Positions 18,216 to 28,856 are shown, numbered from the stretch's first letter. The stretch: 32,000 nt of DNA from Acaryochloris marina MBIC11017 (GCF_000018105.1 NC_009925.1:2220001-2252000); one strand, 5' to 3'. The notes: a model not told the origin generated them from the letters alone. Numbers and translations: made by a program.

Positions 18216-19301
18216 ATGGACAAACAACATCTAATTACTGAACTGCAATCGAACGGACTGCAGGTGATTGCCCCCAGTATTGGCGTAGCGGGTCGTCGGG
18301 GTGGGGCCGGTCCCTCGGATCATAAAGCGGTGACGGTGGATGGGACGACGGTGATGGTTCCGATTTATACGGGAACCGCCAGCCAGTCCCCCTATACCGC
18401 CCAGGTGAATCAAGGCCGGCAAGCGGTGTTAGAGAAAGCCGACCAGGCCGTGGCCACGGTGGAATTTCCTCGGCAACCCCAGTTTTACCAACTACAAACG
18501 GCAGAGGGCATTCCCTACTGGAAGATTGCCCTCCTCCATAGCCATGACGTGTTGGCCACCACGGTATTGCAAACCTGTATGCGGTATCGCGATCCTGATA
18601 CGGCCTGCCAGTTTTGTGCCATTGAAAAGTCCCTAGAGGCGGATCGGACCATTGCTCGCAAAACACCGGAACAACTAGCAGAAGTGGCGGAAGCAGCAGT
18701 GCGCCTGGACGGGGTCCAGCATATGATTATGACCACCGGGACGCCCAATACCCGCGATCGCGGAGCTGCCTACTTAGCCGAATGTGCCCAAGCCATTAAA
18801 GCTCGGGTCAACCTACCGATTCAGGCCCAATGCGAACCCCCGGATGGTTTTGGCTGGTTTGCCCAGATGAAGGCGGCAGGTATCGACAGTTTGGGAATGC
18901 ACCTAGAAGCCGTCGATCCACAGGTGCGATCGCAAATCATGCCCGGTAAAGCCGAAGTCCCCCTATCCCATTACTTTGAAGCCTTTGATGCCGCAGTACA
19001 GGTATTTGGCTGGGGTCAAGTTTCCACCTATTTATTGGCTGGACTGGGCGATAGCCTGGACACGCTGGTGGAGGCTTCACAACGACTTATTGATTTGGGG
19101 GTATATCCCTTTGTTGTGCCCTTTGTCCCTATTTCCAGTACCCCCTTAGCCAATCATCCCGCCCCCAGCAGCGAGTTTATGTTTACCCTCTATCAGCAGG
19201 TGGGGGCGATGCTCAAACAAGCGGGCATGTCCTCGGCAGATATCAATGCAGGATGTGCCAAGTGTGGGGCCTGTTCCGCTTTGTCTACGTTTGAAGCTTA
19301 A
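18216..19301 (+). CDS. Radical-SAM family protein, Nit1C-associated (MSMEG_0568/Sll0785-type)
   Basis: Third position in the Nit1C gene order. The Cys cluster is TCMRYRDPDTACQFCA (Cx9Cx2C). The body looks like a TIM barrel (MTTGTP..., GIDSLGMHLEA). The C-terminus has CAKCGAC. It starts 9 nt after the nitrilase stop. Confidence 0.8.
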   Translation: MDKQHLITELQSNGLQVIAPSIGVAGRRGGAGPSDHKAVTVDGTTVMVPIYTGTASQSPYTAQVNQGRQAVLEKADQAVATVEFPRQPQFYQLQTAEGIPYWKIALLHSHDVLATTVLQTCMRYRDPDTACQFCAIEKSLEADRTIARKTPEQLAEVAEAAVRLDGVQHMIMTTGTPNTRDRGAAYLAECAQAIKARVNLPIQAQCEPPDGFGWFAQMKAAGIDSLGMHLEAVDPQVRSQIMPGKAEVPLSHYFEAFDAAVQVFGWGQVSTYLLAGLGDSLDTLVEASQRLIDLGVYPFVVPFVPISSTPLANHPAPSSEFMFTLYQQVGAMLKQAGMSSADINAGCAKCGACSALSTFEA

Positions 19302-19371
19302 TTTTTAGAGGGTTTATGCCAGCAATCCCCCGATTGCTAGGTAGTACTATTTAGCAGCACAGAGGTATCTG

Positions 19372-19881
19372 ATGGCATCCAGTCGATATTGCTTTAAGTT
19401 GGCGCAATCTCCCCAGGATCTACGGGGATATTTTGACTTGCGTCAGTCTATTTTTTGCCAGGAACAAGGTCTATTTGAAGGGGACGATGAAGACGATATC
19501 GATACCACCGCCTATCCGATCGTAGCTATTGATCAAGAAGCACCTCCAGACCAACAGGTGGTCGGCGTAGTCCGCATTTACGAGGAGCAAGATCGCCTCT
19601 GGTACGGCGGTCGCTTAGGGGTTCATGCTGACTATCGGCGGGTGGGTCGCATCGGTAAGGGCCTGATCTATAAAGCCGTGACCACTGCTAATACTTGGGG
19701 ATGCGATCGCTTCTTGGCTACGGTCCAACTCCAGAACGTTCGGTTTTTTCAACGCCAGCACTGGGACTCCTTAGAAGAGATACAGATTTGCGATCGCCCC
19801 CATCACCTGATGGAAGCAGACTTAGCCTTCTATCCTCCCGGTCATGAACCCCGTCCCCAGCCCCTCCTGCAAGCCTCTTAA
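19372..19881 (+). CDS. GNAT N-acetyltransferase, Nit1C-associated (MSMEG_0567/Sll0786-type)
   Basis: The acetyl-CoA binding segment is LGVHADYRRVGRIGKGLIYKAV. An AGAGG SD lies upstream of ATG 19372. Its stop overlaps the next start (TAATG at 19879-19883). Confidence 0.85.
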   Translation: MASSRYCFKLAQSPQDLRGYFDLRQSIFCQEQGLFEGDDEDDIDTTAYPIVAIDQEAPPDQQVVGVVRIYEEQDRLWYGGRLGVHADYRRVGRIGKGLIYKAVTTANTWGCDRFLATVQLQNVRFFQRQHWDSLEEIQICDRPHHLMEADLAFYPPGHEPRPQPLLQAS

Positions 19882-20882
19882 TGCTGTCGGAGTTAGCCAC
19901 CGAATTACGACAAACCTTGGGCCTGCTGCATAAACGGGATATTCAACCCGTGGCCCGTCACTTGGGGGCTTGGGTCCCGGATAATACCACTCAAAAACCC
20001 ATTTGGTTAGGAGATGACTGTGCCGCTATCCCTGATGGTGAGGGTTATCTATTGCTGGCAGCGGAGGGCATGTGGTCCGTGTTGGTAGAAACAGAACCCT
20101 GGTTTGCAGGCTGGTGTGGAGTACTCGTCAACGTTAGCGATATCTATGCCATGGGAGGCAAACCGATTGCCGTAGTGGATGCCCTCTGGAGTCAGTCCAC
20201 GGATCAGGCAGAACAGCTTTGGCAAGGGATGCAAGCGGCATCTAAGGCCTTTAACGTGCCCATTGTTGGCGGCCATACTCACTGTCATAGCCCCTATAAA
20301 GCTCTATCGGTGGCAATTTTGGGACGCGCCCAACAGTTGATCACCAGTTTCAATGCCCAACCCGGCGATACCTTACTGCTGGTCACCGATCTCAAGGGTC
20401 AGCCCCATCCCAAATATCCGTTTTGGGATGCAGCGACAATGGCAGAACCCCAGACGCTACAGGCCCATCTCAATTTACTGCCCGCCCTGGCTGAGTCAGG
20501 ACTATGCGATGCCGGGAAAGACATTAGCATGGGGGGCTTAGTGGGCACCTTGTTGATGTTACTGGAGACTTCCGGTTGCGGGGCTGAGCTAGACCTAGAG
20601 GCGATTCCCTGTCCTTCGGATTTGGACTTCAAACAGTGGCTGGTGAGTTTTCCCAGTTATGGTTTTTTGCTCAGTGTTAGACCCGATTGTGTGGAGCCAA
20701 TCCAGCAGTTATTTGCCCCCCATGATTTGGTCTGTACAGCCATTGGACAAATCACGCCGGGGCATACCTTAACCCTAAAATCTAGCGCTGAGTCAACTTC
20801 CTTCTGGGACTTGAGCCAAGAATCCCTCACGGGTTTTTCTCCATCCCACGCAGACCGGAAGCACAACCCATCAAACCTCTAA
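19881..20882 (+). CDS. AIR-synthase-related (PurM/ThiL/HypE/SelD-fold) protein, Sll0787-type
   Basis: Motifs LGDDCAAIP, NVSDIYAMGGKP, VGGHT and KDISMGGLVGT are typical of the AIR-synthase-related superfamily. This is the fifth gene in the Nit1C order. Confidence 0.85.
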   Translation: MLSELATELRQTLGLLHKRDIQPVARHLGAWVPDNTTQKPIWLGDDCAAIPDGEGYLLLAAEGMWSVLVETEPWFAGWCGVLVNVSDIYAMGGKPIAVVDALWSQSTDQAEQLWQGMQAASKAFNVPIVGGHTHCHSPYKALSVAILGRAQQLITSFNAQPGDTLLLVTDLKGQPHPKYPFWDAATMAEPQTLQAHLNLLPALAESGLCDAGKDISMGGLVGTLLMLLETSGCGAELDLEAIPCPSDLDFKQWLVSFPSYGFLLSVRPDCVEPIQQLFAPHDLVCTAIGQITPGHTLTLKSSAESTSFWDLSQESLTGFSPSHADRKHNPSNL

Positions 20883-21998
20883 ATTGGGCGGTTGTCGATC
20901 TTGCAGTTGGGCCATTTCGCGATGGAGTTCGGCCTGGAGTTCAGCTTCAGTGGGGAGGTGGAGTTGATAGCGGCTGGCAAAGATTTTGGTTTGTTGGTTG
21001 GGACCAAGGGTGTATTTGACCACGGCATCATTTTTGTCAGAGCAGAGGATTAGACCAAGGGTGGGGTTGTCGTCTGGGGCGCAGCGTTCGAGATCGTAGT
21101 AGTTGACGTAGAGCTGGAGCTGACCAAGGTCGCCGTGGTTGAGTTTGCCGACTTTCAGATCGATCAGAATGTAGCACTTAAGGATGGTGTGGTAGAAAAC
21201 GAGATCAATATAGAAGTGATCGCCTTCGAGGCTGATCCGTTCTTGGCGGGAGACAAAGGCAAATCCTTTGCCCAGTTCGAGCAGAAAGGTTTGCAGGTTG
21301 CTAATCAGGGCGGTTTCGAGGTCGGATTCGACGATACGAGGGGATTCGGGAAGGCCAAGGAATTCAATCACGACAGGGTCTTTGAATACATCGCTGGGAG
21401 TTTGGATAATTTGGCCTTCGGTGGCGAGCTGCATCAGTCCGGCTTTATCGGTGCTTTTGGCGAGGCGCTCAAATAGAAGGCTGCTAATTTGGCGTTCGAG
21501 TTCGCGGGCGGACCAGTTATTTTTGAGCGCTTCGATTTCATAGAAGGATCGGGCATCCAGATTATCGACTCGCATCAGTCTTCGGTAATGGGTCCAAGAC
21601 AGATTGGGATGAAGTTGACCGGGTTGCCAGTTGGGGTTGGATTGAAGGATTTTCGAGAGGTTGAAGGGGGCATCAGAAAGGCTACTCACCGCGTAGCCTT
21701 TGTCCTGGTCACCCAAAAGTTGCGGATAAGCAAAATAAAATTGACGGATAAATTTGAGATTGGCGTAGGAAAAGCCTTTACCAACATCTTTGGTCAGTCT
21801 ACGAGAAAGGTCTTTGAGGAGGTTTTCGCCATATTCGGCCCGCTGTTGTCCCTGTTGTTCTTGTTCGACAATTTCGCGCCCGATCAGCCAGTAGGAGACG
21901 ACTTGTGTCGTATTGACGGTTCGGGAAACGCCGATTTGGGCGGCGTTGAGGATGTCGCGAATACGTTGATATAGCAAATCGGGGTGATTATCGTTCAT
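20871..21998 (-). CDS. DUF1016/YhcG-family PD-(D/E)xK nuclease
   Basis: 375 aa. The N-terminal LYQRIRDIL...SYWLIGREIVEQEQQG..RAEYGE.LLKDLSRRL...FSYANLKFIRQFYFAY is the typical DUF1016 head. The C-terminal nuclease core is FYIDLVFYH...YILIDLKVGKL. It starts 38 nt after the hsdS stop. Confidence 0.85.
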   Translation of the reverse strand: MNDNHPDLLYQRIRDILNAAQIGVSRTVNTTQVVSYWLIGREIVEQEQQGQQRAEYGENLLKDLSRRLTKDVGKGFSYANLKFIRQFYFAYPQLLGDQDKGYAVSSLSDAPFNLSKILQSNPNWQPGQLHPNLSWTHYRRLMRVDNLDARSFYEIEALKNNWSARELERQISSLLFERLAKSTDKAGLMQLATEGQIIQTPSDVFKDPVVIEFLGLPESPRIVESDLETALISNLQTFLLELGKGFAFVSRQERISLEGDHFYIDLVFYHTILKCYILIDLKVGKLNHGDLGQLQLYVNYYDLERCAPDDNPTLGLILCSDKNDAVVKYTLGPNQQTKIFASRYQLHLPTEAELQAELHREMAQLQDRQPPNLEV

Positions 21999-22036: not shown

Positions 22037-23758
22037 CTAAACTTCTAGCTGGCCTACTACAGCAGCGGCAAGGGCTGTGGCTTTTTCCTGGGTTTCGTGC
22101 AGGTGGGCTTCGAGGTTGTCACAGAAGGTCATCAGTTGATCGACTTTGATGACTATGCGTTTTTGTTCAGCGAAAGGGGGAAGAGGAAAAACGAATTGCT
22201 TAAGGGAACGAATATTAACATGAGGGACAGTCATTCCAGCCGCATCATTTAATGCTTGATTAAAAATGACTGGAGCATTCATAACCCAAGAAAAAAAGTA
22301 GGGATCTATATTCGAAGCTACACGGAATTGCATCATACGCTGTGAAAGACATATTTCACATTGCGGTGGAACAACCGCCGCTATCCCAAAATTTCCCTCT
22401 CTCGAATAAAAAATATCTCCCTCTTGTGGTATGAGTCTTTGAGTTTGTGTTTGATACTCTTCTATCCCAACTTTTCGAGCTTGATCAACAAGGATTTTAC
22501 CTGGCTGTATATCTGAAGTTCGAATTGCAGGATAACCATTCTCTTGATACTTAGGTGTTCGATGTAAGCAATCAACAATATGAGTGCAAATTGTCTCAAC
22601 ACGAACCCATGTCCACGACCTTGGAATTTGAAACGGCTGTTCTACTTCATCTAAGGGCTTGATTTTCCTAAGTTTGGGAAACGGCTTCTTTTTTGATAAT
22701 GCATTTTTTTCATGCTGAGCCTGCTCAATGACTTTATCTACAGAGCCATCAGTAACAGTCTGTTTCGATAATTTGCCTCTTGCTCCTAGCTGCAAGATGA
22801 CTTTGCGGACGGTCTCAACTTCTTCAGGTTCCTGAATTAGGCATTCCCAATGCTCTTGAACAAATTCCCAGGCCGTATTTAGCGATTCATCTGTTTCAGC
22901 ATTCATCAGGGCATCGTTCGCACTTGCTCGCATTTTTGTTCGTAGGGTGTTGCGATCGCACTTCGATACCTCATAGCGATCGCACATTGCCATCAATTCA
23001 TCCACCTTCGCCACAATCCGCTTCTGCTCTGCAAGAGGTGGTAGTGGTAGACAAATTTGTTCTACGTCTTTAACTCGCAGATGCTTAACTGTCATTCCAA
23101 CAGCATTACTAGCAAGTCGCTTGATTAAACCTGGTTCAGTCAACGCTAACAGTACAAAGTTTCGATCTACAAACTGTTCAAAGACACGAATTAGCATTGT
23201 TCGCTGTCCCAAACAAACTTTCATCCCATCAGGAATAATAGTGGCTTCACCCATTGGAGCTTCGCGCGTAAAGATAATGTCTCCTGGCTCAGGGAAGCAT
23301 CTTCGTGACCAAAACTCATATGTGTCTTGATCTACATATTTCATCCCATGAAAACGGAACTGGCGATTTCTGATATTAGTCGTTCGTATTAGTGGAATAC
23401 CTTCGAAAGTGGTGGGAGCTGTTTTGTTATGACAATCCACAACCAAAAGAGATAAATCAATTAGATGTGCTATCGACCAATTTGACGGTATATCAAAGGG
23501 GGGGACAGAGGATTCTAAAGCAGAGAGCTTTTTCAACATTCTGCGATACTCAGTATTGGAATCCGCAGTTTTTGCTAAATGTTCAGCTCGCTCATTCCTC
23601 AGATTTGCAAGCTGTTCTTGAGCTTGTCCTTCTGTCGGATCTTGCGGCACTAACTTTCCCCGTACCGCCAAATCCAAAATCAACTCCCGCAGCCGTTGCA
23701 CCCCACCCGGCGCTTCCGCAATCACCTCGAAATTATCCCAAAATGTTGGCAAATCCAT
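22037..23758 (-). CDS. hsdS: Type I restriction-modification specificity subunit HsdS (two target-recognition domains)
   Basis: There is an internal duplication. Each half begins with ...L(I/L)L(D/Q)L(A/G)(V/A)RGKL... and ends with LPLPPLAEQKRIVAKVDELMAMCDRYE or FPLPPFAEQKRIVIKVDQLMTFCDNLE. The two intervening regions are AT-rich and variable, as expected for TRDs. Confidence 0.9.
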   Translation of the reverse strand: MDLPTFWDNFEVIAEAPGGVQRLRELILDLAVRGKLVPQDPTEGQAQEQLANLRNERAEHLAKTADSNTEYRRMLKKLSALESSVPPFDIPSNWSIAHLIDLSLLVVDCHNKTAPTTFEGIPLIRTTNIRNRQFRFHGMKYVDQDTYEFWSRRCFPEPGDIIFTREAPMGEATIIPDGMKVCLGQRTMLIRVFEQFVDRNFVLLALTEPGLIKRLASNAVGMTVKHLRVKDVEQICLPLPPLAEQKRIVAKVDELMAMCDRYEVSKCDRNTLRTKMRASANDALMNAETDESLNTAWEFVQEHWECLIQEPEEVETVRKVILQLGARGKLSKQTVTDGSVDKVIEQAQHEKNALSKKKPFPKLRKIKPLDEVEQPFQIPRSWTWVRVETICTHIVDCLHRTPKYQENGYPAIRTSDIQPGKILVDQARKVGIEEYQTQTQRLIPQEGDIFYSREGNFGIAAVVPPQCEICLSQRMMQFRVASNIDPYFFSWVMNAPVIFNQALNDAAGMTVPHVNIRSLKQFVFPLPPFAEQKRIVIKVDQLMTFCDNLEAHLHETQEKATALAAAVVGQLEV

Positions 23759-24204
23759 TAGACTTCCAGCTCATCTACAACCAAAACCTGCAGCTCAGCC
23801 ACCTTCTTCAGCTGAAAATCATTTGTCAAAAAACCATCACATCCAGACACAATCGCAGTCGCAAGCTGCAAAGCATCCGGTAACTTCAGAGAATATTGAA
23901 CCCGTAATTGAGCCGCTTTTACCGCGATTCCGGCATCAATCGCAACAAAGGTCGTAAACGCTGCCGTTGTGATCACATCCGTGAAAACCTGTTGTTGTTG
24001 AGAATTGCTATCTCTTAGAGGAAACATCAACGTTTCCGCCAAGGTCACCGGAGAAGTCACCGCCACAAAATCTCCTCGACTCAGACTCCGAAAAATCGGT
24101 TGCAACAGCACAAAATACTGCGGATGTTGCTCTACATAGTAAATAACAGGTGCGGTATCGAGGAACAATCGATTGATGCCGGAAAGCACCGCATCGATCC
24201 TCAT
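23758..24204 (-). CDS. vapC: PIN-domain toxin (VapC-like)
   Basis: LFLDTAPVIYYVE near the N-terminus (first acidic residue of the PIN fold) and FLTNDFQLKKV near the C-terminus. ATG 24204 overlaps the upstream stop as ATGA (plus-strand tcat at 24201-24204). Its own stop overlaps the hsdS ATG (TAATG at 23760-23756). Confidence 0.75.
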   Translation of the reverse strand: MRIDAVLSGINRLFLDTAPVIYYVEQHPQYFVLLQPIFRSLSRGDFVAVTSPVTLAETLMFPLRDSNSQQQQVFTDVITTAAFTTFVAIDAGIAVKAAQLRVQYSLKLPDALQLATAIVSGCDGFLTNDFQLKKVAELQVLVVDELEV

Positions 24205-24686
24205 ACCGATGTTTGCCACTGATTTTCGCGATCGTCCCACTCATCACGCATTTTCGTCACCCAAACCTGCGCATTTTCTTCTCTACCAGCACCAGCCGCA
24301 ATCCCCTCTAACTCTAGCCACGATCGTTTAGATGCGATAGTCTCCGCCTCAATATCAGCTAAATCTTCGACCCACTCTGCCCAGCGTCGTTTTAGTTCAG
24401 CTTGATCCACTTGCTCTGCTGCTTGAGACTGAGGATTGGATATGGTCTCTGCATTCGAATATTCCTTAGCCAATAGCAGGACTTCATCCAAATTCCTGAC
24501 ATCCCCCGCCGCAATATCCGCTTCTGCTCTGGCAATAAACGCATCCAATCGTCCCGCCTCCGCATCCGTCTTAATCTGTGCATCCCAGGCATCATCTAAA
24601 TAATCCACCAACCATGCTGACAACTGCCGTGCCTCATCCTCCGGCAACTGTCGAATTGCTGCTTCAATTTCAGCCACTGTGGTCAT
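24201..24686 (-). CDS. Antitoxin-like protein, unusually long (161 aa; apparently two antitoxin-like modules)
   Basis: ATG 24686 is preceded by a strong AAGGAG SD. The track start 24728 is a TTG that overlaps hsdM. The N-terminal part MTTVAEIEAAIRQLPEDEARQLSAWLVDYL..WDAQIKTDAEAGRLD resembles addiction-module antitoxins. The C-terminal SWLELEGIAAG....AQVWVTKMRDEWDDRE resembles cyanobacterial partners of PIN toxins. Confidence 0.6.
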   Translation of the reverse strand: MTTVAEIEAAIRQLPEDEARQLSAWLVDYLDDAWDAQIKTDAEAGRLDAFIARAEADIAAGDVRNLDEVLLLAKEYSNAETISNPQSQAAEQVDQAELKRRWAEWVEDLADIEAETIASKRSWLELEGIAAGAGREENAQVWVTKMRDEWDDRENQWQTSV

Positions 24687-24715
24687 CTCGCCATCTCCTT
24701 GCTCAAAGGATTTTC

Positions 24716-26182
24716 CTATTCTAAACAATCTCGCAAAGCCGCTTGTAAAGCCGATCTCGCTTCATCCGCCTGTTGCACAGCAAACCGATACTTATCCAGC
24801 AATACCGCCGCATCCTCATGCACCTCCCCCGCTGCATTCGGATTCTTTACATCCAGATTGTAGTTATTCGCCTGAATCTCCTGCAGCGACACCTTCCAGG
24901 CAAACTCATTCTCCTCCCGCTGCTCCCACCACGCCTTCTCCGGCCCAAACTCCTCAATCCGCATCGGCTTCGTCTTCGAGTAGGACTTATACCCCTTGGG
25001 ATAAGGATGCTCGTAATACCAAATCTCCTGGGTCGGCTCCCCCTTGGTAAAAAACAACAGATTCGTCTTAATGCTCGTATAGGGTGCAAACACCCCATTC
25101 GGCAACCGCACAATCGTATGTAAATTACACTCCCGCAGCAGCTTTTCCTTAATCCGCGTTTTAATCCCTTCCCCAAATAACGTCCCATCCGGCAACACAA
25201 TCGCGGCCCGTCCGCCTGCCTTCAGCAGCTCCATCACCAACACCAGAAACAGATCCGCCGTCTCCCGCGTGCGGAACTCCGTTGGGAAACCCCGCTCAAT
25301 ACCATCCTCCTCCATGCCCCCAAAGGGCGGATTGGTCACCACCACATCCACCTGATCCGCCCGTGCATAATCCCGTAAGGGCTTGCGCAATGTATTGTCA
25401 TGGCGCACATTGGTTGGCACCTCCAGGCCATGCACCAGCATATTCGTCACGCAGAGCAAATGAGGTAGAGGCTTCTTCTCTACCCCCCAAACCCCCTGCT
25501 TGGCCTGCTCCAAATCCTGCGAACCCTGCACCTGTTGCTTCAAATGCTCAAAGGCGCAGGTCAAAAATCCCCCCGTGCCGCAGGCCGGATCCAGCACCCG
25601 CTCTCCCAACTGCGGATTCACCCTATCAATGGCAAACTGGGTGACCGCACGGGGCGTATAAAACTCGCCCGCATTGCCTGCCCCTTGAAGATCCTTGAGC
25701 AACTGCTCATACATATCCCCAAACAAGTCCCGCTGCTTCGACTCATTAAAATCGATATTGTCATTGATCTTATTCACCACCTGCCGCAGCAACGTGCCCG
25801 ACTTCATATAGTTGTAGGCATCTTCAAACACCGATCGCAGCAGTGCGCCCCGCCCCTGAGCAATTCCCTCTAGGTCTTCTAGGTCCAACTCCTTTAGGGC
25901 CGGAAACAAGCAATTATCCACTAGATCCAGCAGTGCCTCTCCCGTCAACGCCTGCTTGCCCAATTGCTCACTATCCGCCCAGGCCGACCACTGCAGTTCC
26001 GCTGGAATCGGAGACTCATAGTCATCCACTAGGGCTTCCAGTTCCAAGTCCTGGTCGCTAAAAATCTTAAAAAACAGCATCCAGCCCAACTGTCCGATGC
26101 GCTGGGCATCTCCATCGACCCCCACATCCTTGCGCATGATGTCTTGAATCGACTTAATCGTGGCGGATAAAGACATAGCCAT
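24716..26182 (-). CDS. hsdM: Type I R-M N6-adenine DNA methyltransferase subunit HsdM
   Basis: SAM-binding motif VLDPACGTGGFL, catalytic motif VVTNPPFGG, and an HsdM N-terminal helical domain. Confidence 0.95.
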   Translation of the reverse strand: MAMSLSATIKSIQDIMRKDVGVDGDAQRIGQLGWMLFFKIFSDQDLELEALVDDYESPIPAELQWSAWADSEQLGKQALTGEALLDLVDNCLFPALKELDLEDLEGIAQGRGALLRSVFEDAYNYMKSGTLLRQVVNKINDNIDFNESKQRDLFGDMYEQLLKDLQGAGNAGEFYTPRAVTQFAIDRVNPQLGERVLDPACGTGGFLTCAFEHLKQQVQGSQDLEQAKQGVWGVEKKPLPHLLCVTNMLVHGLEVPTNVRHDNTLRKPLRDYARADQVDVVVTNPPFGGMEEDGIERGFPTEFRTRETADLFLVLVMELLKAGGRAAIVLPDGTLFGEGIKTRIKEKLLRECNLHTIVRLPNGVFAPYTSIKTNLLFFTKGEPTQEIWYYEHPYPKGYKSYSKTKPMRIEEFGPEKAWWEQREENEFAWKVSLQEIQANNYNLDVKNPNAAGEVHEDAAVLLDKYRFAVQQADEARSALQAALRDCLE

Positions 26183-26216: not shown

Positions 26217-28571
26217 CTACGCCCCTGGAGAAGCTGATTCATCATCGTACAGCATCCGCGCCAACTCACTTACCGCTGCCCGATATTGCTTCTTCCCCCC
26301 AAACTGTTTCAACAACTCCACAGGCGTCCCTAACTGGGCAAACGGCTCCAACTGCAGAACCTTCGCATCCTCCATAGAGACCACCCCCTGATCGGCATAC
26401 TTCTCCAACAGACCTTCCAACACCGCCCGCGCGGTCTCCCCATATTGCGTAAACACATCTCGCTTGCGCACCTGGTTGGCTCGCTCTCGTCTGGTTTTGG
26501 GGGGCTGATCAAAGGCCACATGGCAAATCAAATCAAAGAGGTCATACTCTGCCCCCACCTGTTTGGCTAATGCTTCCACCATCACTCCGTGGGACTGGAG
26601 TTCCTCCAAGATCGCCGACTTGCGATCCGCCTTATTCCATTTCCCCAAAAAGCGATCCAGAGACTGATACGCCTCATTAATCGTCCGACGGTTATAGTCC
26701 TTGAGGGATTCCGTCGTCAGTTTCCCCTCCTTGTCGTAGTAGCTCACCCGCTCCCGCGCCACCATAAATTCCTGACGCCCCACTTGGTATTTCACCCGTT
26801 CAGCAGAACCATCATCGAAGGCTGGGTCAAGGGTGACATCTCTAGGCTCTGACTGGGCCGAGGATGGACCAACACCAAACTGCTCATCCTGAATCGGAGG
26901 CCCATCCCAATCCTCATCGTTAAACAATGCCGTAGCATTGCGAAAATCAATAATGGTGAAAAAGTTTTTGCCAAAGTCGGGGCGTAACCGCGTCCCTCGC
27001 CCCACAATCTGCTTAAACTCGGTCATCGACTGGATCCGTCGATCCAAAACAATCACATGACAGGTTTGGGCATCCACCCCCGTCGTCATCAGCTTCGAGG
27101 TGGTCGTAATCACCGGATAGTCTTCTTTCGGATTGATAAAGTGATCCAGTTGGGCCTTCCCTTCCTTGTCATCCCCCGTTACCCGCATCACATAACGCCG
27201 ATCCTGCTCCACGAGGGGCCGATTCACCGCAACATTCACAAAAGCCTGCCGCATCCGCTCCGCATGGTCAATATCCTCACAAAAGACAATCGTCTTGCGC
27301 ATCGGGTCGCCTTGATGCAGAAACTCACTCACATACTCCGCCACCGCCTGGGTTCGCTGGTCAAACACTATATTGCGGTCAAAGTCCCGCAAATTGTACT
27401 CCCGCTGCTCGATCAATTGCCCCTGATCATCCACCTCATTGGCGTCCGGTATCCAGCCCTCTATATCCTTATCCAACTGCACCTGCACCCGACGGAACGG
27501 AGCCAAGAAACCATCCTCAATCCCCTGCCGCAGGGAATAGGTGTAAATGGGTTCACCAAAATAATCAATATTAGAGACGTATTGAGTTTCCTTAGGAGTA
27601 GCGGTTAAGCCTAACTGAGTGGCGCTGGTAAAATAATCCAACACCTGTCGCCAGTTAGAATCCTCCGCTGCGCTGCCCCGGTGACATTCATCAATCACAA
27701 TCAAATCAAAGAAATCTGCCGGGAACTTGCTGTACAGATCCTCCTGGCCTTCCTGGCCAATAATCGCCTGGTAAATACCGAGATAGACCTCATAGGAGGT
27801 ATCAATCTTGCCATTGTCGTCTACCAGTTTGCGCGTCAGCTTAGTCATCACCTGGCCAAAAGGGCGAAAATCATTGGTAATGGTTTGATCCACCAACGCA
27901 TTGCGATCGGCTAAAAACAGCACCCGCTTCACCACCCGCTTTTTCCACAGTCGCCAAATAATATTGAAAACCGTGTAAGTCTTTCCAGCTCCCGTCGCCA
28001 TCACTAGGAGACAGCGCTTCTGCCCCTTGGCAATAGCCGCCAAGGTCTGATTGATCGCCAACTGCTGATAGTAGCGGGGCTTCTTCCCTCCTATCTCAAA
28101 ATAATAAGGCGAGGTGAGCAGCGCCTCGTCCACCCCCAACAACCCTTGGCTCTGACGATACCGTTGCCACAGCTCATCCGGTGACGGAAACACCTCCAGC
28201 GCTAGCGCCTGCTCCACCTGAGGATAAGTACCACTGCGATCATGGAGCAAAAAGCCATCCCCATTCGAAGAAAACACAAACGGAACCTGCAAAGTCTCGG
28301 CATATCCCAGGGCCTGCTGCATTCCCGCCCCCAAACTATGTTTGTTATCCTTGGCTTCAATTACGGCAATCGGCTGGTTCTGAGGGTAAAACAGCAAATA
28401 ATCTGCTCGCTTGCGTTTTCCCCTCGTCGTCAATTGCCCCCGCACAATGATCTGCCCATCCGTAAAGCCATATTCCCGCCGGATTTGGCTTTTCTTCCAA
28501 CCCGCCGCATCAATCGCCGGAGTAATATAGCGATCGCAAATATCCACTTCACTCAGAGATTTTTTGGTCAT
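26217..28571 (-). CDS. hsdR: Type I R-M restriction endonuclease/translocase subunit HsdR (EcoEI/EcoAI-like, probably family IB)
   Basis: N-terminal PD-(D/E)xK nuclease (ADYLLF...IAVIEAKDN). SF2 motor with MATGAGKT and VIDECHRG. The C-terminal segment (FDLICHVAFDQPPKTRRERA...LQLEPF...FGGKKQY) resembles the EcoEI R C-terminal domain. ATG at 28571; the track start 28574 is a TTG. Confidence 0.95.
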   Translation of the reverse strand: MTKKSLSEVDICDRYITPAIDAAGWKKSQIRREYGFTDGQIIVRGQLTTRGKRKRADYLLFYPQNQPIAVIEAKDNKHSLGAGMQQALGYAETLQVPFVFSSNGDGFLLHDRSGTYPQVEQALALEVFPSPDELWQRYRQSQGLLGVDEALLTSPYYFEIGGKKPRYYQQLAINQTLAAIAKGQKRCLLVMATGAGKTYTVFNIIWRLWKKRVVKRVLFLADRNALVDQTITNDFRPFGQVMTKLTRKLVDDNGKIDTSYEVYLGIYQAIIGQEGQEDLYSKFPADFFDLIVIDECHRGSAAEDSNWRQVLDYFTSATQLGLTATPKETQYVSNIDYFGEPIYTYSLRQGIEDGFLAPFRRVQVQLDKDIEGWIPDANEVDDQGQLIEQREYNLRDFDRNIVFDQRTQAVAEYVSEFLHQGDPMRKTIVFCEDIDHAERMRQAFVNVAVNRPLVEQDRRYVMRVTGDDKEGKAQLDHFINPKEDYPVITTTSKLMTTGVDAQTCHVIVLDRRIQSMTEFKQIVGRGTRLRPDFGKNFFTIIDFRNATALFNDEDWDGPPIQDEQFGVGPSSAQSEPRDVTLDPAFDDGSAERVKYQVGRQEFMVARERVSYYDKEGKLTTESLKDYNRRTINEAYQSLDRFLGKWNKADRKSAILEELQSHGVMVEALAKQVGAEYDLFDLICHVAFDQPPKTRRERANQVRKRDVFTQYGETARAVLEGLLEKYADQGVVSMEDAKVLQLEPFAQLGTPVELLKQFGGKKQYRAAVSELARMLYDDESASPGA

Positions 28572-28856
28572 CAAACAAAAAATAAAGGTATTTTAAGCGT
28601 GAACAGCATCCAGCTCGCTCCTACTCATCATACCCAGGTAAATCACCTATGGTTCGGCAGTTTGATAGGTCTATTCCTCTCGATCTGGGCCTTGCCTGTC
28701 TCTGCTTACACCCTATTCCCTAGATCTCGGCCTGCAAAGTTCCCAGAGTTATGTCACCCATTTACACACCCAATAACACCCAATTCAGGTGTTGGATTCG
28801 ACAGGGCATCCCTTTAGACTATTGGCATTCAATTTATCAGAGCCAAGGGCCAACCC

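Follow-up and report, generated by a model that had tools for sequence, protein, structure and literature searches.

A predicted VapC-type toxin with a chimeric antitoxin, probably a generic toxin-antitoxin cassette, in the hsdM-hsdS gap of a type IB restriction-modification operon of Acaryochloris marina

The stretch of 32,000 nucleotides (nt) at NC_009925.1:2220001-2252000 of Acaryochloris marina MBIC11017, hereafter the window, was analyzed for two small genes lying inside a type I restriction-modification (R-M) operon. On the minus strand, the genes were placed in the order hsdR, hsdM, a gene for a protein of 161 amino acids (aa), a 148-aa PIN gene, hsdS, and yhcG. The two small genes are read as a toxin-antitoxin (TA) cassette of the vapBC kind with a chimeric antitoxin. 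The cassette would be a generic TA module in an exchangeable hsdM-hsdS slot of a type IB operon, not a nuclease controlled by the R-M enzyme, and a probability of about 0.75 is given to this reading. By sequence comparison, the 161-aa antitoxin is two different antitoxins fused, i.e., ParD-like and VapB-like.

An earlier note on this DNA had described a PIN toxin and a long antitoxin between hsdM and hsdS, and every element was found in its place. The antitoxin gene (24201-24686; positions are on the minus strand unless given otherwise) starts 29 nt past the hsdM stop codon (TAG, 24718-24716). In this gap, a Shine-Dalgarno-like AAGGAG (24700-24695) was read directly from the sequence, 8 nt 5' of the antitoxin ATG at 24686. 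The antitoxin stop TGA overlaps the ATG of the PIN gene (23758-24204) as ATGA (24204-24201). The PIN stop TAA overlaps the hsdS ATG by 1 nt in TAATG (23760-23756). The start codons agreed with those of homologues, i.e., the family of the antitoxin N-terminal module (N-module) starts with MTT at a length of 73 aa, and the PIN family has a length of 148 aa. In the PIN family, the overlap between the upstream stop and the PIN ATG is mostly 4 nt (ATGA). Because at least 381 PIN homologues and at least 203 metagenomic relatives of the N-module were found, both small open reading frames (ORFs) are, on this comparative evidence, real genes and not chance ORFs.

The 161-aa protein showed no family match in Pfam (E ≤ 0.1), NCBIfam (E ≤ 0.1), or PADLOC, and its relatives matched nothing meaningful in curated profiles up to E ≤ 5. 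An identical protein was already annotated as "hypothetical protein [Acaryochloris marina]". Apart from this identical entry, 16 relatives were aligned and fell into three classes. The N-only class (90-114 aa) aligned to residues 1-70 alone. The C-only class (114-130 aa) aligned to residues ~71-161 alone and had another N-terminus. The fused class (142-143 aa) had the first ~113 residues in common with the window protein and a different tail.

Residues 1-70 (24477-24686) form a near-complete ParD-like antitoxin module, i.e., the antitoxin that pairs with a ParE_like (PF24732) toxin. They are 84% identical to a 73-aa protein of the sister assembly L001, whose gene overlaps a ParE_like gene. Eighty metagenome loci of the N-module family were examined. 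The module was free-standing and exactly 73 aa long in 66 of them, and most loci then carried an 85-86-aa ParE_like-type ORF with an overlap of 22-25 nt. The family alignment contained 17 invariant columns. Since the free-standing module has this fixed length and is followed by the overlapping ParE_like-type ORF, residues 1-70 are considered almost the whole antitoxin of a different TA family. In the fused protein, only the last 2-3 residues and the stop codon of the module were lost. No ParE_like toxin gene was found in the 32-kb window, with the best tblastn match at E=1.6.

Other fusions of the same module were also seen. In L143 (301-876), a DUF5615 PIN-like gene lies downstream of a 191-aa fusion of the 73-aa module with a DUF433-like antitoxin. 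In L146 (221-964) and L149 (2501-3256), the ParD-like module was followed by an unknown domain of ~180 aa, giving fusions of 247 and 251 aa. These independent fusions suggest that the module fuses repeatedly after toxin loss. In the metagenome contigs L004-L006, a 90-aa homologue of the N-module (P0008) was placed between a gene for a 600-aa AAA_15/AAA_21 ATPase and a DUF559 (Vsr-like endonuclease) gene. No ParE_like gene was called 3' of this homologue in the three contigs, which may be another defence-island context.

The rest of the protein came from the antitoxin of the PIN family itself. Residues 71-95 (24402-24476), LLAKEYSNAETISNPQSQAAEQVDQ, form a linker from the middle of the VapB-like antitoxin and align with LLAKRSANATPLSKDQPDP of the L001 protein P0006; the low-complexity part covers residues ~77-95. 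Residues 96-161 (24204-24401) form the C-terminal module (C-module) of the PIN-cognate antitoxin, with 95% DNA identity to L001 6192-6963. Among the 80 species-level loci used for the neighbourhood counts of the PIN family, an upstream ORF was found in 77, including two frame artefacts, with a median length of 83 aa and a range of 75-139 aa. The C-terminal family motif, [KR]xWxE[LI]xG.AP..L.GEDAQxWVxxxRxExDExRE, was carried by the upstream partners of 75 of these loci. Window residues 120-154 (KRSWLELEGIAAGAGREENAQVWVTKMRDEWDDRE; K120-E154, nt 24225-24329) fit this motif, and tblastn with window residues ~94-160 gave matches directly 5' of the PIN gene in 14 loci. It is therefore reasonable to take the C-terminal half as the tail of the PIN toxin's own antitoxin, with K120-E154 as the presumed toxin-neutralising segment.

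The N-terminal domain of the VapB-like family (LLxQxLxEIEQLTPEEQLxxIxHL; family length ~75-100 aa) was not found in the window protein, and the ParD-like module stands in its place. The N-termini of the two families gave a weak hhalign alignment (32 columns, E=1.2e-4, probability 55%), so the replaced and the replacing N-termini may be analogous helix-LPxxE-helix scaffolds. The earlier note had suggested an antitoxin about twice the usual size, with two antitoxin-like modules and a low-complexity linker. The size agreed with the comparison, i.e., 161 aa against the median 83 aa of the PIN-family partners. The modules proved to be the 73-aa antitoxin associated with ParE_like and the C-terminal two-thirds of the PIN toxin's own antitoxin.

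The 148-aa protein is predicted, from its sequence and its structural model, to be a VapC-type PIN protein, and its toxicity is likewise predicted. It matched Pfam PF01850 with E=1.2e-14 and 55.4 bits (cut-off 23.6), with residues 14-137 covering profile positions 2-119/120. The profile searches proposed in the earlier note thus confirmed the PIN assignment, but they placed the antitoxin in no curated family. The note had also named a lack of the conserved PIN acidic residues as evidence that would speak against it, and this objection fails. In 26 homologues of 50-95% identity, D16 and E57 were invariant, and D110 and D129 were at least 90% conserved. The AlphaFold2 (AF2) model had a mean predicted local distance difference test score (pLDDT) of 90.2 and a predicted template modelling score of 0.85. 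Foldseek with this model returned 31 matches in the PDB at E ≤ 1e-3. Almost all were VapC, FitB, or archaeal PIN proteins, and template modelling scores were 0.6-0.7. In the PDB sequence search, the single weak VapC match for the PIN protein was Klebsiella pneumoniae VapC (7by2), to which LKLPDA was aligned; the same search with the antitoxin was uninformative. The PIN family was large, with 468 hits among GTDB species representatives. A plasmid search gave four distant PIN relatives only, annotated as VapC or PIN domain proteins, and no homologue of the fused antitoxin.

The cassette resembles type II VapBC systems, such as Shigella/F-plasmid VapBC, Rickettsia VapBC2, and K. pneumoniae VapBC (7by2), in the PIN fold and its four conserved acidic residues, and in the upstream antitoxin with a 4-nt ATGA overlap. 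The antitoxin C-terminus is conserved with the toxin family, and the model matched VapC chains. Unlike these systems, the window antitoxin has no recognizable AbrB, ribbon-helix-helix (RHH), PhD, or helix-turn-helix (HTH) domain and belongs to no curated family. Its N-terminal half is the antitoxin of a ParE_like system, and the cassette, 29 nt past hsdM, has no separate promoter region. Compared with ParD/ParE-like pairs (PF24732), the N-module is nearly that of L001, but the window has no toxin partner for it and the antitoxin reads on into a second antitoxin.

The origin of the fusion was followed by blastn. The window and L001 were collinear through hsdM and the 73-aa gene to 24478, and the alignment resumed at 24402-23631 with 95% identity. 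The L001 segment skipped by the window was 745 nt long and contained the ParE_like gene, a small ORF (orf64), and the N-terminus of the VapB-like antitoxin. At the fusion junction, the window reads ...DEVL|LLAK..., and L001 has ...DEVLNND* and ...EYL|LAKRS.... The window and L002 were collinear to 24348 with 94.6% identity, and the alignment resumed only at the hsdS ATG.

In TA decay, the permitted direction is loss of the toxin with retention of the antitoxin. The simplest reading of these alignments, inferred from sequence comparison, is a tandem array, then a deletion, then an antitoxin-antitoxin fusion. The slot would once have carried a ParD-like/ParE_like cassette followed by a VapB-like/PIN cassette, in the order still present in sister assemblies. 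A deletion would have removed the ParE_like toxin, the small ORF, and the VapB N-terminal domain. The in-frame product would then be an almost complete ParD-like antitoxin with the linker and toxin-binding tail of VapB. A later exchange of tail and toxin, i.e., the 148-aa PIN (PIN148) for an unrelated 137-aa PIN (PIN137), would have passed through the common AELKRRWAEWVEDL segment. A fusion is preferred to a split because the parent families are uniform at 73 aa and ~83 aa.

The selection on each part was estimated by the Nei-Gojobori method as the ratio of nonsynonymous to synonymous substitution rates (dN/dS), with 5-20 substitutions per comparison. The N-module gave 0.13-0.19 among the fused alleles. 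Between the window and L001, the C-module gave 0.13 and the PIN gene 0.21, and hsdM gave 0.03-0.05 between the window and the sister assemblies. The linker was the least constrained segment, with ~0.5 among the fused alleles against 0.13-0.19 in the flanking modules. It was also the segment of lowest confidence in the AF2 model of the antitoxin, with pLDDT below 50 at residues 81-91. Both halves of the antitoxin thus look constrained and the linker relaxed, in agreement with the linker proposed in the earlier note. The fused architecture persists across alleles with dS up to 0.43 and protein identity of 74-91%. Between the window and L001, dS was 0.10 for the PIN gene but 0.58 for hsdM, which indicates a recent exchange of the cassette between lineages.

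The hsdM-hsdS slot was compared with seven other assemblies having the same flanking genes, i.e., eight including the window; one of them, L171, is a short contig with the slot and hsdS only. The shared neighbourhood was a glycosyltransferase gene, then hsdR, hsdM, the slot, hsdS, and yhcG, then AIR synthase-like, GNAT, and radical SAM genes. Six slot configurations were found in the eight assemblies. The window slot holds the fused 161-aa antitoxin and PIN148. The L001 slot holds the 73-aa ParD-like antitoxin, an 85-aa ParE_like toxin (PF24732, E=1.3e-10), orf64, a 130-aa VapB-like antitoxin, and PIN148. L169 and L170 also carry the 73-aa ParD-like and 85-aa ParE_like genes, followed by orf61, a VapB-like gene of 120 or 123 aa, and a PIN148 reduced to its 3' part (starting at residue 83 or 88). 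L003 has a 162-aa PIN (PIN162), orf62, a truncated VapB-like gene of 116 aa, and a 3' remnant of PIN148 in which D110 is replaced by N. L002, L007, and L171 carry a fused antitoxin of 142-143 aa, with the N-module and linker as in the window and another tail, and the unrelated PIN137. These varied contents indicate that the cassette is exchangeable and dispensable.

PIN148 was 5'-deleted in three of the eight assemblies (L003 6348-6551, L169 4360-4557, L170 4315-4497), in which the first ~82-87 codons are gone with at least two end points. In two of the three, hsdS was intact. In L170 (4500-5296), hsdS ends after ~84 codons and the contig closes with an opposite-strand transposase-like ORF, which suggests a disrupted R-M locus in that strain. 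L001 retains TAATG, as do the PIN remnants of L003 and L169. In the PIN137 alleles L002, L007, and L171, a non-coding spacer of 75-107 nt was found before hsdS.

The slot also contained smaller elements. A third cassette type was seen in L003 (5238-5898), where the 162-aa PIN, with a weak Pfam match, has an overlapping 62-aa ORF. An ORF of 61-64 aa stands alone as an orphan in L001 (5765-5962), L169 (3713-3898), and L170 (3690-3875), and is possibly an antitoxin left after toxin loss.

HsdS of the window was conserved against L001, L002, L003, and L007 only at the N-terminus (23758-23631), the centre (23047-22814), and the C-terminus. The two target-recognition domains were different in each assembly, and the specificity therefore probably varies from strain to strain.

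Several points weigh against a generic, exchangeable cassette with a fused antitoxin. The antitoxin belongs to no curated family, and its AF2 model was poor (pLDDT 63). No DNA-binding domain (RHH, AbrB, HTH, or Phd) was matched in it by profile search, and no match is not proof of no binding. The direction of the fusion is taken from family-wide lengths, and the diverged linker means that L001 is not the direct parent. The dN/dS values come from few substitutions, and toxicity, neutralisation, transcription, and translation are all inferred. Other points of this kind concern the R-M genes. Type I R-M subunits were the commonest immediate neighbours of the PIN family, at 11-12 of the 80 loci (Cyanobacteria, Acidobacteriota, Chloroflexota), and this recurrence could be more than hitch-hiking. 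An orthologous operon in L010 (Leptolyngbyaceae) has the order hsdR (64%), hsdM (76%), vapB (~78 aa), PIN (55%), and hsdS, with identities to the window in brackets. Every PIN148-type allele, even each of the three with a deletion, retains the 3' end of PIN and the hsdS junction; this may be chance, or hsdS expression may need that sequence.

These last points favour a guardian or abortive-infection module, in which the PIN protein is wired to the type I enzyme and fires when phage blocks R-M, or sets hsdS output via TAATG. Wiring of the pair to the R-M enzyme had been proposed in the earlier note. PrrC is a precedent for it, and EcoKI hsdM and hsdS are translationally coupled through a 1-nt overlap (PMC3510504). 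TAATG mimics this canonical overlap, so the coupling of hsdS to PIN translation suggested in the note is plausible in the window allele. However, the 75-107-nt spacer of the three PIN137 assemblies indicates that TAATG does not represent a conserved design. The sister slots hold unrelated toxins (ParE_like, PIN137, PIN162) or a truncated PIN with intact hsdS, and ~86% of the PIN-family loci do not adjoin R-M genes. Unlike PrrC, the cassette brings a cognate antitoxin, which bears the family-wide motif. Such arrangements are not conserved among close species (Matelska 2017, PMC5499597). An unrelated family also occupies this position, i.e., a ParD-like/ParE_like cassette lies between HsdM-like and HsdS-like genes in L116 (76-2083), an unrelated metagenome contig. 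In L102 (49-1850), a ParD-like/ParE_like cassette is followed by an HsdS-like gene. In total, 2 of the 80 ParD-like/ParE_like loci, which had shorter flanks, abut hsd genes. Their presence next to type I genes elsewhere is evidence that the hsdM-hsdS gap generally serves as a landing pad for TA cassettes. On balance, wiring to the enzyme is considered unlikely, and the claim of the note was not upheld.

The comparison with PrrC of the EcoprrI type IC locus, and with RloC, Abi2, and other nucleases embedded in R-M loci, leads in the same direction. The likeness is a latent RNase gene in a type I hsd operon, probably co-transcribed with it. PrrC consists of an ABC-ATPase N-domain and a C-terminal HEPN nuclease (PMC3710099), lacks an antitoxin of its own, and is kept silent by the R-M complex itself. 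The window nuclease, in contrast, is a single-domain PIN protein with its own conserved antitoxin, and its cassette can be exchanged for others and is often found degraded in sister strains.

A broader form of the idea takes the whole VapBC family as a genuine accessory of type I R-M systems (~14% of loci abut hsd genes, in three phyla), with a second-line abortive or guardian nuclease expressed in lockstep with the M and S genes, and with the fused antitoxin as a dual-specificity hub for the local PIN and for ParE_like toxins of other loci in the genome. It is regarded as a little less likely again. If true, it would link two TA networks to the restriction operon.

Regulatory co-option is improbable. 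In this case, the antitoxin or the TA complex would be mainly a transcriptional or translational regulator of hsdS or the operon, and the toxin would be secondary. TvrAT, i.e., Phd-Doc homologues in the pneumococcal SpnIV/tvr type I locus, damp recombinase expression, and no addiction phenotype was found for them (Kwun 2018, PMC6265443). As in that locus, TA homologues lie here among hsd genes of a type I system with variable hsdS specificity. Such a role would also agree with the purifying selection seen in each half of the fused antitoxin and with a gene position suited to translational coupling with hsdS. However, TvrAT belongs to another TA family, and the tvr locus carries its own dedicated recombinase and undergoes programmed shuffling, whereas neither a recombinase nor inverted copies of hsdS were found in the window. 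Profile search detected no DNA-binding domain, no operator-like inverted repeat or promoter was found near the cassette, the PIN catalytic residues are intact and conserved, and the slot content is not conserved.

A decaying remnant, with the fused antitoxin as an erosion scar, the PIN inactive or unexpressed, and the N-half vestigial, would fit the decay in sister slots (5'-deleted PIN in three of eight, orphan orf61/64, a truncated antitoxin, hsdS cut in L170) and the loss of the ParE_like partner, but it is very improbable given that both ORFs are intact with a good Shine-Dalgarno site and overlapping codons, that all four PIN acidic residues are present, that the N-module, C-module, and PIN have dN/dS values of 0.13-0.21, and that the fused form persists over such divergent alleles.

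PIN-like TA pairs transcriptionally coupled to type I R-M subunits have already been published (Matelska et al. 2017, NAR, PMC5499597). In Synechocystis PCC 6803, ssl8008-sll8007 of plasmid pSYSG is listed as a TA system (Kopfmann 2016, PMC4963859). The gene order of pSYSG was checked, i.e., hsdM (8346-6652), DUF433 (6601-6377), DUF5615 PIN-like (6393-6043), and hsdS (6046-4652), with a 4-nt overlap between toxin and hsdS. As in the window, hsdM and hsdS enclose a PIN-type TA pair of the same orientation, and the toxin stop overlaps the hsdS start, by 4 nt in pSYSG and 1 nt in the window. The lack of conservation between close relatives is also shared with the Matelska cases. In contrast, the pSYSG toxin is of the DUF5615/PIN_10 type and not the VapC-like PF01850 type, and its antitoxin family differs. 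The pSYSG pair is on a plasmid, whereas the window pair is in a chromosomal type IB operon and has a fused two-module antitoxin.

For the generic vapBC-like cassette, the following working is proposed. The 148-aa PIN would act as a VapC-like Mg2+-dependent RNase, and the C-terminal ~40-65 residues of the antitoxin would bind it and hold it inactive. Translation of antitoxin and PIN would be coupled via ATGA, as in most family members. The ParD-like half probably supplies a scaffold or dimerisation, and perhaps operator binding. The scaffold role is taken as probable because this half begins with a helix-LPxxE-helix resembling the replaced N-terminus and is under purifying selection. It may also have kept the ability to neutralise ParE_like toxins from genes elsewhere. 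The 1-nt overlap with hsdS would permit termination-reinitiation in the window allele, as a consequence of compact insertion. The conserved stretches at the hsdM 3' end, in the antitoxin, and at the hsdS 5' end would serve as homology arms, making the slot a recombination hot spot through which lineages exchange cassettes and hsdS recognition domains. The role of the cassette would be that of a generic selfish or stabilising TA module, possibly with a phage-defence function, riding in a defence operon. Island stabilisation and second-line defence, both raised in the earlier note, are possible as generic TA roles.

The R-M genes around the cassette were assigned by profile search. The hsdR gene (26217-28574) encodes a 785-aa restriction subunit of type IB (EcoAI/FtnUII family), which matched NCBIfam NF046051 with 1134.7 bits (cut-off 550) and the Pfam domains ResIII, EcoEI_R_C, and HSDR_N_2. 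The hsdM gene (24716-26182) encodes a 488-aa N6-adenine methyltransferase subunit (Pfam N6_Mtase E=2.8e-78, HsdM_N E=5e-11). The hsdS gene (22037-23758) encodes a 573-aa specificity subunit with two stretches of Pfam Methylase_S (E=8.8e-25). With HsdR, HsdM, and a two-domain HsdS on one strand with short gaps, the system is, from these matches, a chromosomal type I system of family IB (EcoAI-like).

The last gene of the same-strand cluster, yhcG (20871-21998), encodes a YhcG-like PDDEXK nuclease (DUF1016_N and YhcG_C, Pfam E=5.6e-57 and 1.8e-38). It starts 38 nt 3' of hsdS and matched the candidate defence family PDC-S02 in PADLOC (E=1.8e-139). Because it lies downstream of hsdS in all syntenic assemblies that reach that far, it may be a conserved accessory of the type IB system. 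On the plus strand (18216-20882), a compact cluster of partly overlapping genes, i.e., radical SAM, GNAT acetyltransferase, and AIR-synthase-related, flanks the R-M operon in each of the syntenic assemblies.

The hsdM-antitoxin gap showed no promoter-like site and no convincing terminator-like one, and promoters, terminators, and operator-like repeats around the cassette were not above the shuffled expectation. With the gap of only 29 nt and no such signal, the cassette is probably co-transcribed with hsdM. The Rfam search of the window gave no RNA family. Base composition gave no clear island signal, with GC content merely lower (0.43-0.45) across hsdS and PIN. A mini-ORF of three codons (ATG GCG AGA TGA, 24683-24694) lies just past AAGGAG, and its stop overlaps the antitoxin ATG. 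Its encoded residues suggest presence in L001 and absence in L002, and it is probably fortuitous. The PIN, HsdS, and YhcG proteins all end in ...LEV before the stop (gene ends 23758, 22037, and 20871). A cassette-insertion scar was considered for this ending and rejected for PIN, as most family members outside hsd contexts end in ...ELEV; in HsdS and YhcG it is probably a coincidence.

As PIN TA pairs in type I operons are already documented, the arrangement itself adds little. The result of the sequence comparison is a natural fused antitoxin in a TA hot spot. Its useful part is a natural allele series at one chromosomal slot, in which TA gain, swap, fusion, and erosion can be seen stepwise, i.e., tandem cassettes, fusion of an antitoxin with a foreign tail, exchange of the tail with its toxin, and loss of the 5' part of the toxin gene. 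The analysis also flags two antitoxin families that are widespread but absent from the curated libraries (Pfam, NCBIfam, PADLOC).

Modular antitoxins with exchangeable "linear" neutralisation elements have been described (Ernits et al. 2023, PNAS, PMC10440598). The fused alleles follow this model of a scaffold with a swappable C-terminal tail, in that they share the N-module and linker and their tails are matched to PIN148 or PIN137. They differ from it in that the scaffold is almost the entire antitoxin of another family, and in being a natural case with an unfused, precursor-like arrangement in sister strains. The allele series thus supports the model of antitoxin evolution by a scaffold with an exchangeable linear neutralising tail. 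The locus is a test case for neutralisation of PIN by the tail alone and of ParE_like by the ParD-like half. It also suggests that hsdM and hsdS provide homology arms at their conserved ends, and that the gap between them is a landing pad for TA cassettes.

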